From an uncultured Clostridia bacterium (lineage in GTDB: Bacteria > Bacillota > Clostridia > Christensenellales > UBA1242), in contig CAMUJQ010000001.1 of assembly GCA_947089305.1 (NCBI GenBank), positions 1 through 44,403 on the forward strand: a stretch of DNA of 44,403 nucleotides, written 5' to 3'. Below are positions 4,974-35,890 of the stretch, in pieces; the first letter of the stretch is position 1; each line of letters begins with the position of its first letter. The translations under genes were made by a program, and so were the position numbers. The notes under the pieces are model-generated. The model did no database searches. It was not told where the DNA came from and worked only from the letters and a program-made list of their open reading frames with translations.

Positions 4974-6028
4974 TATTTTTCCTCCTCCGTTTTATCTTTT
5001 TCGTTTTTCTGAGAAGGATTATTTTGTCTATTAAGAACTTTTTGAATTAACGATTTAGTTTCTTCTGAAATTAAATCACTATTTACTTCTTTTTCAATTG
5101 TTTCTTTTTCTTCTTTTCTTTTTTTATTTCCAGCAAGCAAAAATATTTCTTCAATGCTACTCTTTTTTAAACTAAAACCGCTATACGGTGTTTTAAGATT
5201 TTTAATGGCTTTAAGTGTTTCTTGATTTTTTCCGTTTACAAAATTTAAATTTACACCGTCTTTAACTTTATAAGCTTTTTCACAAATATCCAATTTAGAA
5301 AGTTCTCTAATTAAATCGCCAACATTTTCATCTTCACATTCTATAAAATAAACATTTTTTTGATAAGCTTTTAATAATTCACGAACAGTGCCTGTAATTT
5401 GAATTTCACCATTAACAATTAACCCAACTTTTGTGCACACTTTTTCAATATCAGTTAAAATATGAGTTGACAAAATAATTGTTTTTCCTTCTTCACTTAA
5501 CTCTTCAATTATGCTTAAAACCTCTGCACGACCTTTAGGGTCAAGTGCACTTGAAGGTTCGTCTAAAAGAACAATTTCAGGGTCGCTAACAAGGCCTGCT
5601 GCAATTCCAAGACGTTGACGCATACCTCTACTAAATCCCTTTATACGTTTATCAGCCGCTTCTTCTAAATCTACTTTTCTTAAAAGAGTGTTAGTTAAAA
5701 GACGTAACTCTTCTTTTTTTAATTTTTGAGGAGCAGCTAGAAATTCCAAATATTCTCTTGCTGTTAAAAAATCATGCAATGCAGGTATATCTAAAATATA
5801 TCCAACTTTACCTTTTAATTGATTTAAATTTTTTATTACTTCTCCGTCTAATTCAACAGTACCACTTGTAGGCATTAGAACTTGACTGATGATATTTAGC
5901 AACGTTGTTTTGCCCGCTCCATTTTCTCCAACAAGACCAAAAACTTCACCTGCATTAATTTCAAGGTTAATGTTTTTAAGAACTTGTTTTTCTTGAAACG
6001 ACTTATTTATGTTGTTTAATTTTAACAT
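4973..6028 (-). CDS. ABC transporter ATP-binding protein with C-terminal extension
   Basis: Walker A GENGAGKTT, signature FSRGMRQRL and Walker B LLDEPSS are present. About 110 extra C-terminal residues end in a Lys/Glu-rich tail. Confidence 0.88.
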   Translation of the reverse strand: MLKLNNINKSFQEKQVLKNINLEINAGEVFGLVGENGAGKTTLLNIISQVLMPTSGTVELDGEVIKNLNQLKGKVGYILDIPALHDFLTAREYLEFLAAPQKLKKEELRLLTNTLLRKVDLEEAADKRIKGFSRGMRQRLGIAAGLVSDPEIVLLDEPSSALDPKGRAEVLSIIEELSEEGKTIILSTHILTDIEKVCTKVGLIVNGEIQITGTVRELLKAYQKNVYFIECEDENVGDLIRELSKLDICEKAYKVKDGVNLNFVNGKNQETLKAIKNLKTPYSGFSLKKSSIEEIFLLAGNKKRKEEKETIEKEVNSDLISEETKSLIQKVLNRQNNPSQKNEKDKTEEEK

Positions 6029-7451: not shown

Positions 7452-7528
7452 GCGCCGCTAGCTCAGCTGGATAGAGCGTTGGTCTACGGAACCAAAGGTC
7501 AGGGGTTCGAATCCCTTGCGGCGCACCA
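7452..7528 (+). tRNA. tRNA-Arg (anticodon ACG), CCA encoded
   Basis: Hand-folded cloverleaf. Acceptor GCGCCGC/GCGGCGC, anticodon stem TTGGT/ACCAA, loop CTACGGA, T-arm AGGGG-TTCGAAT-CCCTT, discriminator A and CCA. Confidence 0.93.
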
Positions 7529-7530
7529 GA

Positions 7531-7551
7531 AATGGCTTTCGCCATTTTTTT
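7531..7551 (+). terminator. intrinsic terminator directly after tRNA-Arg
   Basis: AATGGC-TTTC-GCCATT hairpin followed by a T run. Confidence 0.6.
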
Positions 7552-7656
7552 ATGCTTGCAAGAATTCGAGCAAGTATATTGACTTGCAATTGCACTTTGT
7601 GCAATTCCCCTGACTAAAGTCAGGGCTGACGCGTTCACTTTGTTTCCGCTATAAAG

Positions 7657-7682
7657 CGAATCCCTTGCGGCGCACCAGAAAT
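7657..7682 (+). repeat. perfect 26-nt direct repeat of the tRNA-Arg 3' end (copy of 7508-7533), attR-like
   Basis: CGAATCCCTTGCGGCGCACCAGAAAT occurs at both positions. No tRNA 5' half precedes the second copy. Confidence 0.9.
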
Positions 7683-35373: not shown

Positions 35374-35402
35374 TTTACAATAATTATTTTCTTTGTTATA
35401 AT
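35374..35402 (+). promoter_or_regulatory. sigma70-type promoter for tRNA-Ser
   Basis: TTTACA (35374-35379), a 17-nt spacer, then TATAAT (35397-35402). It lies about 38 nt upstream of the tRNA. Confidence 0.55.
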
Positions 35403-35440
35403 GTAAATACCATGTTTTAAATATGGCGAATTTTATATTT

Positions 35441-35530
35441 GGAGAAATACCCAAGTGGTTAAGGGGCTCCCCTGCTAAGGGAGTAGGTCTGTTAAAGGGC
35501 GCATGGGTTCAAATCCCATTTTCTCCGCCA
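35441..35530 (+). tRNA. tRNA-Ser (anticodon GCT), class II with long variable arm, CCA encoded
   Basis: Acceptor GGAGAAA/TTTCTCC, anticodon stem CTCCC/GGGAG, loop CTGCTAA, T-arm ATGGG-TTCAAAT-CCCAT. A TCCC-GCAA-GGGA + T7 terminator follows at 35533-35551. Confidence 0.92.
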
Positions 35531-35667
35531 ATTCCCGCAAGGGATTTTTTTATTTTTAAAAATGGGATTTAAAAGGCTTTGCCTTTTTGTGCGTTATCGC
35601 ACTGAACCCATGCTCGCATGGCTGACGCTTTGCTCTCGAAAACAAGTTTTCTTCGCTTGCTATATAA

Positions 35668-35711
35668 CAAATCCCAAATTCTACCGCCAATTCCCGCAAG
35701 GGATTTTTTTT
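35668..35711 (+). repeat. imperfect direct repeat of the tRNA-Ser 3' end plus its terminator (copy of 35510-35551), attR-like
   Basis: CAAATCCCAAATTCTACCGCCAATTCCCGCAAGGGATTTTTTTT compares with CAAATCCCATTTTCTCCGCCAATTCCCGCAAGGGATTTTTTT. There are 2 substitutions and a 1-nt insertion, all in the tRNA-derived part. Confidence 0.85.
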
Positions 35712-35890
35712 AAGCACATGTTTATTCACTTTTTAGAAATAAATTTATTACAAGGGGTAAGCAACTTCCCATTGGTTAACAATTATATTTTTTAAGATAT
35801 TTAAAAAATTTCTTATTATTGTTTGTTATAAATTTTTTTATGTGATATACTAACTATAGTAATTAATTTAACAAACAAGAGAGAAAGTAT

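Follow-up and report, generated by a model that had tools for sequence, protein, structure and literature searches.

The unit at positions 35531-35711, immediately downstream of a tRNA-Ser(GCT) gene, belongs to a genus-specific family of elements that lack genes and are rich in hairpins, here designated tRNA-tail modules, of which this genome has about ten. Positions refer to the window, that is, the whole 44,403-nucleotide stretch of DNA analysed. On the basis of sequence comparisons, we see an even chance that these are disseminating insertion modules which would depend on functions acting in trans, target the T-loop of tRNA genes, rebuild the tRNA 3' end and probably be co-transcribed with the tRNA as an RNA resembling RtT of E. 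coli.

Structure of the tRNA-Ser(GCT) module

The class II tRNA-Ser(GCT) gene occupies 35441-35530 (ARAGORN; 61.6 bits with the Rfam tRNA model) and, as are all the features described below, is on the forward strand. It is preceded by a promoter at 35374-35402 (TTTACA-17-TATAAT with a TG extension, 11 of 12 matches), and its T-arm (35501-35522) is the template for all four arms of the module. The module opens with a trailer and a weak terminator (35531-35551; TCCC-GCAA-GGGA, then T7), the 4-bp stem of which is below the threshold of the terminator and promoter scan. The A' arm (35559-35573) is an inverted copy running from T-loop A57 through the 3' T-stem strand to the start of the acceptor 3' strand, with 12 of 12 positions perfect and 14 of 15 overall, and it matches the functional tRNA more closely than it does the distal copy. 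It is followed by hp1 (35571-35587; AAAAGGC-TTT-GCCTTTT), at the site taken by GCAAAC-n4-GTTTGC in sister copies, and by hp2 (35589-35602; GTGCG-TTAT-CGCAC), the stem letters of which vary from copy to copy with the pairing maintained. TGAACC and the B' arm (35603-35613) form a perfect inverted copy of tRNA bases 35501-35511, and the B'/B hairpin (35608-35621; CCATG-CTCG-CATGG) has as its 3' arm B, a direct copy of the 5' T-stem strand. The stretch 35622-35668, which consists of CTGAC(GC), hp3 (inner hairpin GAAAAC-AA-GTTTTC, 35638-35651) and TATATAAC, stands in place of G53-T54-T55 of the distal T-arm copy. Arm A (35668-35689) is the distal tRNA copy from C56 to CCA, degenerate by two substitutions and a 1-nt insertion, and the distal copy of the trailer and terminator, ending in T8, closes the unit (35690-35711); AAGCACATG starts at 35712, directly past the distal terminator.

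The sequence-only reading had described the duplicated block, 35510-35551 versus 35668-35711, as differing by two substitutions and one inserted nucleotide, which alignment bears out (TT to AA at 35519-35520 and an added A at 35683); the T-run is T7 in the proximal and T8 in the distal block, and a perfect 27-nt direct repeat is present (35525-35551 = 35684-35710). It was also right to take the distal copy as the decaying, non-functional one. AAATCCCATTTT (35511-35522) has a perfect inverted copy at 35559-35570, which when extended gives 15 nt at 93%; these are the only 2 matches in the 44-kb window, for 0.07 expected. This 12-nt copy had been recognised earlier, as had the hairpins at 35575-35588 and 35608-35621, both correctly placed; a second inverted copy had been missed. 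The latter is that of GCATGGGTTCA (35501-35511; end of the variable region, 5' T-stem and T54-A57), inverted perfectly at 35603-35613 where 0.01 is expected. A' and B' adjoin at T-loop position 57/58 of tRNA-Ser and together constitute a split antisense to 22 contiguous tRNA bases. The 116-nt insert contains no gene: the ORFs of 77 and 57 amino acids lying across the module have no Pfam match, and ORF 35562-35795, already suspected, is spurious.

Sister modules in the same genome

The genome is a 1.0-Mb MAG of a small gut Clostridia, 94% complete and distributed over 106 contigs (G000 in the comparisons). Several of these contigs terminate inside modules. The genome-wide check for tRNA genes trailed by their own 3' end, which had been proposed from the Ser locus, revealed such a copy 70-160 nt downstream in 10 of 34 tRNA genes, nine of which have a common skeleton. 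The modules are about 110-170 nt long, always directly 3' of a tRNA gene and on its strand, with the following order of parts: trailer and terminator, A', hp1, hp2, (C/T)GAACC-B', a short loop, B, CTGAC, hp3, TATAnnnC, then A (C56 to CCA) with its trailer and terminator. A' and B' are inverted copies of the T-arm halves of the adjoining tRNA, B and A are direct copies, and the break between the copied halves lies at T-loop positions 53-58. The four arms vary with the tRNA and the skeleton is constant across copies. The tRNA-Arg(ACG) gene (7452-7528, forward strand), for example, is directly followed by a module (7529-7682, forward strand) with its own terminator, a degenerate A', two hairpins, the B'/B hairpin CCCTGAC-TAAA-GTCAGGG, CTGACGC, hp3, TATAAAGC and a distal copy perfect over 26 nt. 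Since one skeleton occurs at ten different tRNAs, dissemination must have occurred.

A long variant of hp3 is restricted to the four copies at class II tRNAs. Direct repeats across the modules are 25-55 bp long and tRNA-derived (42 nt for Ser). The distal copy is decayed in the Ser, Lys and Tyr modules, the Tyr copy has lost its CCA, and the closing helix is broken in three copies. Remnants of older units persist past the distal copy in the Lys and LeuCAA modules, and the loop of the LeuCAA distal terminator is flipped (TTTT versus AAAA).

The first interpretation given to this DNA was that of independent relics of tRNA-integrating prophages or islands, deleted down to their att arms. Such relics would account for a direct repeat of the tRNA 3' end that begins in the T-loop, and a truncated integrase does lie on contig C17, about 1.5 kb from tRNA-Arg(CCT) and 4 kb from the tRNA-Arg(TCG) copy. 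Ten separate deletions, however, would not converge on one skeleton of 110-170 nt, the hairpins are intact and compensated, and there is no likeness to any phage, plasmid-like or viral contig; this explanation is very improbable to us. Far-off copies of any tRNA 3' end, as marks of a large element, were absent from the genome, and among 50,697 phage records none was matched by the His module in blastn. The explanation that we find hardest to credit is a by-product of replication errors, with template switching at the terminator palindrome yielding a direct-inverted-direct triplication of the tail. The S-S'-S arrangement is indeed centred on hairpins, and a flipped loop such as that of the LeuCAA distal terminator is a known signature of quasi-palindrome template switching, but the non-tRNA skeleton shared at ten loci (hp1 GCAAAC..GTTTGC, CTGACGC, GCTATA) and the genus-specific cores would be left unexplained. 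Template switching may still help to copy the arms.

Pairing and predicted folds

Over 9-12 nt, B' is perfectly complementary to the cognate tRNA, which is the top or tied top match in seven or eight of the nine copies. Hand-parsed hairpin stems add up to 205 Watson-Crick pairs with no G-T pair and a single mismatch, and stem letters are unlike between copies; G-T pairs are also missing from the terminators of this genome, the automated G-U count was noisy, and MAFFT alignments of the modules were out of register in the hairpins. Predicted folds comprise an A'/A closing helix and four hairpins (z-score of -6.0 for the His copy), and A' ends 3-5 nt before the discriminator, which leaves a tail of 7-9 nt. 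In the Ser module, decay of the distal arm leaves the predicted A'/A helix weaker, and in the predicted read-through transcript A' and B' pair instead with the tRNA's own T-arm through 22 perfect pairs. Every copy has a flawless B'/B, yet six of nine have a degenerate A', a difference which suggests selection in place and fits a function better than a dead insertion.

Arms rewritten for each tRNA on a fixed scaffold, and meeting at T-loop position 57/58, are also what a programmable guide might look like: A' and B' would steer a host or helper activity (nuclease, recombinase, modification enzyme or ribozyme) to the gene or precursor of the cognate tRNA, B and A being a built-in decoy or the reaction product. 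The genus-specific scaffold would be expected under co-evolution with a protein partner. No candidate partner protein was found, the IS110, Y1 and RT families being absent, no known ribozyme or guide family matches the modules and A' is degenerate in most copies, so that we hold such a guide to be unlikely.

Other assemblies and related genomes

The tRNA-Ser tail and terminator had been described as duplicated, and independent assemblies confirm that this is no artefact: 35380-35800 is matched at 100% identity by a Logan assembly of SRR14038243, and a JGI contig from sample 3300006217 (L055) carries the same Ser module with one substitution in the distal copy. Neither an empty site nor a circle junction was found in three or four other assemblies of the species, which are identical at the Ser, His/Lys, LeuCAA and LeuAAG loci save for that substitution in the JGI Ser module. 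Homologues of the flanking gene (58-70% identity) were examined for empty sites as well, and their synteny is gone.

Analogous modules with different cores were detected in other genera of the family: 29 of its genomes were sampled and eight carry them (9 of 165 tRNAs), with a patchy presence at orthologous tRNAs; a sample of 134 tRNAs from ten further families of the order had none. Between genera, the cores show no sequence relationship. A search for the skeleton pattern GAACC..CTGACG..CTATAnnnCRAnTC returned only chance matches in high-GC coding DNA among 185,579 GTDB species representatives, IMG/VR and JGI metagenomes, and nothing in 40 relatives; the skeleton sequence is, across these collections, confined to this genome. 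Several of the relatives are informative with regard to origin. G075 has a trailer and terminator of module type at the proximal copy and a different terminator after the distal one. G009 carries tandem pairs behind tRNA-Gly (two) and tRNA-His (two), with differing trailers and compensated hairpins, and remnants of older units lie past the distal copy in G003, G012 and G056. Orthologous Gln modules from two species of one genus are 82% identical and show one compensatory pair change, between flanks that are unalignable.

These observations divide the earlier claim of a recombination scar. Insertion into the T-loop with replacement of the 3' end stands as the most economical origin at the DNA level. 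The scar of a larger element does not, given a skeleton behind ten tRNAs with rewritten arms, analogous modules in 8 of 29 genomes of the family, some in tandem, hairpins that are fully complementary despite differing sequence, and Gln orthologues conserved at 82% with a compensatory change. The sequence-only reading had set against a scar a conserved functional unit with covarying structure, and the modules largely correspond to the latter.

Recombinases and classes of mobile elements

No recombinase gene or intact parent element was found within or beside any copy. Tyrosine recombinases (PF00589) are represented in this genome by only two C-terminal fragments, located elsewhere. The Y1/HUH transposase (PF01797) is absent from G000, G003 and G012, the IS110 DEDD transposase (PF01548) from all 19 family genomes searched, G000 among them, and the reverse transcriptase (PF00078) from G000, G003, G009 and G012; there was no Rfam match to introns or retrons at module loci. 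A Y1_Tnp pseudogene of G009 was set aside, being an ordinary degraded IS200-type copy near tRNA-Arg with no relation to the modules.

With tyrosine-integrase elements the modules share the direct repeat of the 3' part of the tRNA around the insert. An integrase inside or next to the insert is missing, and core-type inverted repeats around a 6-8-bp overlap do not occur at both junctions. At the distal junction of the Ser module, B (35617-35621) and A (from 35668) are separated by a 46-nt gap; as this gap is 25-50 nt in the sisters, in place of a 6-8-bp overlap, the distal junction is not a canonical attR. An IS200/IS605 element or PATE was rejected since there is no Y1 HUH transposase gene and a 42-nt direct repeat is present, an IS110/IS1111 bridge-RNA element since the DEDD transposase is missing, and a retroelement (group II intron or retron) since the reverse transcriptase is missing. 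Neither are the modules MITEs: their ends are not mutual inverted repeats, and the direct repeat of 25-55 bp is tRNA-derived and not a short fixed target duplication. We know of no integrase system that rewrites four arms together, as retargeting to ten tRNAs requires.

Probable transcription and likeness to RtT

Within 35531-35711 no promoter-like site was found, and the tRNA-Ser promoter is the sole one upstream of the module. A terminator separates the tRNA from the module in most copies, which counts against read-through. CTGACG...TATAnn was rejected as a promoter, its spacing being 9-33 nt with no promoter-like site called, and GAA-hairpin-CUGA as a hammerhead, with a single hairpin between the motifs and CUGACGC in place of CUGAnGA. 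Rfam searches at gathering and permissive thresholds returned only matches to tRNA and tRNA look-alikes, and no ribozyme or guide family. The RtT covariance model (gathering score 45 bits) gave no match at E up to 5-10 in six loci of this genome and six loci of relatives, with three matches of 134-138 bits in the E. coli positive control; sequence homology to RtT is not demonstrable from the one shared 12-mer (E ~0.02). At the level of layout, as in RtT, the modules lie directly 3' of a tRNA gene and end in its 3' end with CCA, and the closing helix with a free NCCA tail is present when predicted folds are compared with the Rfam consensus, in weakened form for Ser.

The modules may also be read as RtT-type small RNAs with a host function, expressed from the tRNA promoter and released by tRNA-processing enzymes, which would act as tRNA mimics or as antisense to the T-arm, their spread as DNA being rare and incidental. 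In this explanation, A with its NCCA end, paired to A', would resemble an external guide of RNase P or a minihelix, while 3' exonucleases would be halted by the CCA end. The agreement with the Rfam RtT consensus speaks for such a role, as do the absence of an own promoter, the constant location on the tRNA strand and the weak first terminator. B'/B is perfect and cognate everywhere while neutral parts decay, a compensatory change separates two species, the fold is strongly non-random, and the predicted read-through transcript of tRNA-Ser offers A' and B' 22 perfect pairs with the T-arm. One skeleton at ten tRNAs would nevertheless still need dissemination, and broken closing helices in three copies, a Tyr copy without CCA, the patchy distribution among genera and cores unrelated between genera all fit poorly with a host role; moreover, RtT is itself a poorly understood orphan. 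We regard a host-function RNA as a real but minority possibility.

Proposed mode of insertion

As a disseminating module, the unit would be laid down at the DNA level by insertion into the T-loop of a tRNA gene. The incoming unit would bring a fresh end from C56 to CCA and a terminator, which become the proximal and functional copy, and the original 3' end would be shoved downstream as a distal copy free to decay, as may have happened in Ser, Lys and Tyr; tRNA-integrating islands follow this logic. The terminators of G075, the tandems of G009, the remnants of older units, the decay of distal copies and the patchy presence all point to insertion with 3'-end replacement. A unit has nothing beyond a folded core and arms that match the target, so its movement must rely on functions supplied in trans. 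The fold that A'/A and B'/B form on one strand could mimic the duplex T-arm target, and by analogy with CTXphi attP(+) and attC the folded strand is the likely form of recognition. Lacking its own promoter and following a weak terminator, the module is probably also transcribed by read-through from that of the tRNA, into an RNA that, like E. coli RtT, would be closed by an A'/A helix, end in a free NCCA tail and be open to trimming by tRNA-processing enzymes.

A wider and more doubtful proposal is that the modules represent a programmable class of elements without protein genes that targets tRNA genes. A folded RNA or single DNA strand would pair through A' and B' with the T-arm of the chosen tRNA gene, insertion would take place at positions 53-58, the 3' end would be rebuilt and the arms re-templated for each target, E. 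coli RtT being a domesticated or fossil member.

If the dissemination model holds, roughly one in four tRNA genes in a minimal gut bacterium bears a structured passenger that owes its specificity to short arms taken from the very tRNA it follows. It would also place E. coli RtT, an orphan RNA for 40 years, in a comparative context for the first time, and suggests that RtT belongs to a broad class and is not an oddity of tyrT. The possibility is raised that nucleic-acid arms recognise tRNA genes without a dedicated enzyme encoded by the element. For annotation, modules yield false ORFs (as 35562-35795), partial-tRNA matches and seeming att scars, and they break assemblies.

Comparison with known systems

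The attL and attR sites of tyrosine-integrase elements inserted in tRNA genes (T-loop sublocation) and CIMEs likewise have a direct repeat of the 3' part of the tRNA from the T-loop, a functional proximal copy, a displaced and decaying distal copy and a trailer and terminator of their own brought in. In contrast to these, the tRNA-tail modules bracket only about 110-160 nt with no gene, lack a core-overlap-core arrangement distally, have one scaffold for ten targets and are not associated with an integrase. The forked hairpin of CTXphi attP(+) and the integron attC are folded single-strand recombination sites of Xer- and IntI-type systems, respectively. By analogy, both also present the two target orientations on one strand, and their fold rebuilds a duplex target with an unpaired or branched centre; the target of the modules is the tRNA T-arm rather than dif or attI, and their centre holds whole hairpins. 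The bridge RNA of IS110 and the guide tetranucleotides of IS200/IS605 elements and PATEs are similar in that short target-matching sequences are carried on a structured scaffold, but the arms of the modules are 9-15 nt long and their direct repeat of 25-55 bp is not made by those families.

A helix with the acceptor/T-stem 3' strand followed by NCCA is the minimal shape for tRNA-processing enzymes. RNase P external guide sequences, the tRNA minihelix and plant mitochondrial t-elements have this helix, to which that of the modules may be analogous, with the difference that A' stops 3-5 nt before the discriminator and leaves a 7-9-nt tail.

The closest likeness in layout is to the 178-bp RtT (rttR) repeats of the E. 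coli tyrT-tyrV operon (RF00391), which also lie directly 3' of a tRNA gene on the same strand, in units that end in a copy of that tRNA's 3' end with CCA. RtT is described as a processed product of the tyrT transcript in the account of Bosl and Kersten (1991) given in PMC3318445 and bioRxiv 10.1101/2024.07.17.603846. Its upstream inverted copy, GGGGAAGGAT, pairs with the 3' copy and closes a fold with a free NCCA tail, as A'/A does in the modules, and a direct copy of the 5' T-stem and T-loop is again followed by a hairpin-rich insert, with units in tandem. RtT differs in being found at one tRNA species only, without a B' arm and without an intervening terminator, whereas the tRNA-tail modules serve ten tRNA species with arms rewritten for each.

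tRNA-Ser(GCT) locus

The unit directly 3' of tRNA-Ser(GCT) is a member of a disseminated family of structured, tRNA-specific modules whose layout resembles that of RtT, the RNA repeat of the Escherichia coli tyrT operon. The tRNA gene was placed at 35441-35530 by ARAGORN and Rfam. A repeat finder returned a perfect 27-nt direct repeat (35525-35551 = 35684-35710) and inspection by eye confirmed the longer block described in the sequence-only reading, which runs from C56 of the T-loop (35510) through CCA, trailer and T-run and recurs at 35668-35711. As that reading had stated, the tRNA-derived part of the distal copy differs by two substitutions and one inserted A; by eye, its T-run is also one T longer than the proximal one. 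The reported 12-nt inverted copy of 35511-35522 at 35559-35570 is perfect and unique in the window (0.07 matches expected by chance). A second inverted copy had been missed: GCATGGGTTCA (35501-35511) is found inverted at 35603-35613 (0.01 expected). Both arms are jointly antisense to 22 contiguous tRNA bases (35501-35522), with their junction at T-loop position 57/58.

The Ser region is identical in the Logan assembly of SRR14038243. A JGI contig from a different sample contains it too, the distal copy differing there by one substitution. The repeat is therefore not an assembly artefact. In this contig of a second strain (L055, JGI 3300006217), 43 nt corresponding to 35479-35521 are missing within tRNA-Ser, after CCCAAGTG to GCATGGG, and the downstream module is intact; the gap reflects either mis-assembly or a tRNA-Ser allele that is broken.

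Module family in the genome

The genome to which the window belongs is a 1.02-Mb MAG with 29% G+C, 106 contigs and 35 tRNA genes. The last 20 nt of each tRNA were sought up to 500 nt downstream, and a copy of the tRNA's own 3' end was found 90-160 nt downstream of Arg-ACG, Ser-GCT, Lys-TTT, His-GTG, Met-CAT (second gene, contig C14), Arg-TCG, Tyr-GTA, Leu-CAA and Leu-AAG. The proposed search for other tRNAs trailed by their own 3' end thus yielded nine main copies, plus a shorter variant at the first Met gene (C14). No distant copy of a tRNA 3' end, the mark of a large element, was found for any tRNA in the genome, and the tmRNA gene carries no module.

Compared side by side on the tRNA strand, the nine main copies have their parts in the same order. 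The trailer/terminator is followed by A', which repeats the 3' T-loop, the 3' T-stem and the beginning of the acceptor 3' strand in inverted orientation, then by hairpin hp1 (GCAAAC-n4-GTTTGC in five copies) and hairpin hp2, which has its own sequence in every copy. Next come (C/T)GAACC-B', where B' is the inverted counterpart of the 5' T-stem, variable-loop bases and T54-N57, a 1-4-nt loop, and B, which repeats the 5' T-stem strand directly. The unit ends with CTGAC(GC), hairpin hp3 (either 3 bp or longer and two-tiered), TATAnnnC and A, which repeats C56 to CCA in direct orientation and in most cases includes trailer and terminator. Within the genome, a regular expression of this skeleton matches no sequence other than these copies. 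Only the four class II tRNA copies (Ser, Tyr, Leu-CAA, Leu-AAG) have the long hp3, with GAAAAC-AA-GTTTTC or a close variant, a restriction with 1 chance in 126 by hypergeometric count; this match may simply be a sub-lineage marker.

Several loci show peculiarities of their own. Behind the first, initiator-like tRNA-Met gene stands a shorter unit, some 80 nt long (C14:18290-18384), whose 12-nt distal copy (CATCCCCGCAAC) is devoid of CCA and runs into a TATAAT box before the next tRNA-Met; contig C14 terminates within the repeat of the second Met module. The tRNA-Arg(TCG) locus (C17:2794-2840 and 2905-2930) has no separate terminator, and the pairing partner of its A'-like segment is the acceptor 3' strand; a similar segment also follows the distal copy, so A' is here part of the repeated block. 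The tRNA-Lys(TTT) and tRNA-His(GTG) genes (C6:3040-3650) are divergent, 132 nt apart, and have a module each; in most other genera of the family, Lys and His tRNAs belong to a single co-oriented Gly-Arg-His-Gln-Lys-Leu cluster. Immediately upstream of tRNA-Leu(AAG), a 58-nt indel (C73:788-845) separates the MAG from L076 (ERZ13657780); the longer allele holds the TTGACA -35 box of the tRNA promoter, which the shorter one lacks, and two other assemblies break exactly at position 846.

Distribution in other genomes

The skeleton sequence is private to the window's genome: it was found neither in 40 relatives nor in the GTDB species representatives, and IMG/VR and JGI metagenomes gave only chance matches in high-GC coding DNA. 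Phage records lacked it as well. The nearest named relative of the flanking gene is from Candidatus Caccovivens (Clostridia), at 54% identity.

The layout is not private, other genera showing the same principle with different cores. When the tRNA-His neighbourhoods of 60 family genomes were fetched and every tRNA therein was tested, 9/165 tRNAs, in 8/29 family genomes, had a copy of their own 3' end 113-240 nt downstream that was not part of another tRNA. Modules follow Leu-TAG and Gly-TCC in G012 (contiguous inverted T-arm, shared 34-nt hairpin), Gln-TTG in G003 and G075, and Lys-CTT in G056; His of G070 and Leu-TAG of G043 share an AGCACCC..GGC.TGA.AG core. In G009, a tandem pair with unlike trailers and compensated hairpins stands behind both Gly-TCC and His, and in G003, G012 and G056 the beginning of another unit follows the distal copy. 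No significant similarity was detected by blastn among the genus-specific cores. In ten other families of the same order, 0/134 tRNAs had such a module. One genome of another family of the order (G025, locus L089) carries a 3'-half copy including the variable arm 272 nt downstream of tRNA-Leu(TAA), an ordinary att-like partial tRNA repeat unlike the modules.

Pairing, decay and predicted folding

The hand-parsed hairpin stems comprise 205 Watson-Crick pairs, no G-T pair and one mismatch, with stem sequences varying between copies. Predicted folds of the modules as single strands agree with the layout: an A'/A helix closes round four hairpins and leaves a 5-9-nt NCCA tail; the fold z-score of the His module is -6.0.

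Over 9-12 nt, B' is perfectly complementary to the cognate tRNA, and in 7-8 of the nine copies no other tRNA ranks above the cognate one. A' is clearly cognate in Ser, Lys and His only and degenerate in the other copies, and distal A is degenerate in Ser, Lys and Tyr (CCA to CAA in Tyr). B'/B is thus kept, and A' and distal A decay. Because the distal arm of the Ser module has decayed, A' and B' pair with the tRNA's own T-arm in the predicted minimum-energy fold of the whole tRNA-Ser read-through transcript, and the terminator, hp1 and hp2 branch from this helix. The sole promoter-like site is the tRNA's own (TTTACA-17-TATAAT, 35374-35402), and the first terminator after tRNA-Ser has a 4-bp stem.

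In the tRNA-Leu-CAA module (C30, about 5231-5420), the distal terminator (ATGACC-AAAA-GGTCAT) is a flipped version of the proximal one (ATGACC-TTTT-GGTCAT); loop inversion of this kind is characteristic of template switches inside palindromes. The 5' T-stem region is also present in inverted form (CCACACGAA) after the distal copy of this module.

Origin and mode of spread

For the spread and RNA action of the modules we infer a scheme to which we give roughly an even chance: a unit with its own 3' end and terminator would insert into the tRNA T-loop, the inserted 3' end would replace that of the tRNA, movement would rely on a trans factor, and the module would be transcribed by read-through. 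The main rival, that the modules encode a host-function RNA of the RtT type, we regard as possible but rather unlikely; that they serve as programmable guides seems to us more doubtful still. In G003 and G075, of one genus, the Gln modules align at 82%, but no alignment is possible beyond them; a double change in one hairpin is compensatory (GCGGAT/ATCCGC versus GCGAAT/ATTCGC), and a further hairpin is lost. The terminator after the distal copy of G075 differs from the module-type terminator after the proximal copy, as expected from T-loop insertion by such a unit. The tandem arrays with unlike trailers, the decay of the distal copy only and the closer match of A' in the Ser and Lys copies to the functional tRNA than to the distal copy point in the same direction. 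Four module loci are the same in other assemblies of the species, so no empty site was seen.

The search for a mobiliser gave none. Y1 transposase, IS110 DEDD transposase and reverse transcriptase genes were found in none of the window's MAG, G003 and G012. A degraded Y1 gene of G009 proved to be an ordinary IS200-type copy. PF00589 is represented in the MAG just by a truncated 112-aa fragment (C17) and a second one interrupted by the end of contig C65. The former, a tyrosine-recombinase C-terminus, lies with a 410-aa ORF downstream of tRNA-Arg(CCT) (C17:6790-8731), in what seems to be the decayed remains of an integrated island; no att repeat was detected there.

Comparison with RtT

Rfam holds no matching family for the modules, and a full-text literature search found no description of a multi-tRNA class of this kind. 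Bases 1285800-1287300 of E. coli K-12, at the tyrT operon, contain units of 178 nt each behind tRNA-Tyr. Each unit starts its series of parts with GGGGAAGGAT, which is ATCCTTCCCC (3' T-stem and acceptor) in inverted form; then come CTTCGAccAAGGTTCGA, which repeats the 5' T-stem and T-loop directly, a hairpin-rich insert of 66 nt and ATCCTTCCCCCACCACCA. The Rfam RtT consensus is closed by exactly that inverted/direct pair, with ccaCCACCA free, so the RtT layout is the same as that of the modules.

The rtT RNA is reported to be processed from the tyrT transcript and to play an unclear part in the stringent response (Bosl and Kersten 1991, cited in PMC3318445; bioRxiv 10.1101/2024.07.17.603846), and the latter source describes that, under stress, the tyrT-rttR region shows increased coverage in exonuclease-treated 'mobilome' DNA.

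At the sequence level, the RtT model gives 134-138 bits for E. coli and no hit for the modules, and the similarity is limited to a single 12-mer. This 12-mer, GAGCGCCAGCGA, is common to the K-12 rttR units (L060) and the second Gly-TCC module of G009 (L037), a genome whose modules have recurrent GCCA hairpin loops; being marginal (E about 0.02 in a tiny database), it may reflect chance or a shared motif. With no model hit and one 12-mer, the modules work like or look like RtT and do not belong to the Rfam RtT family.
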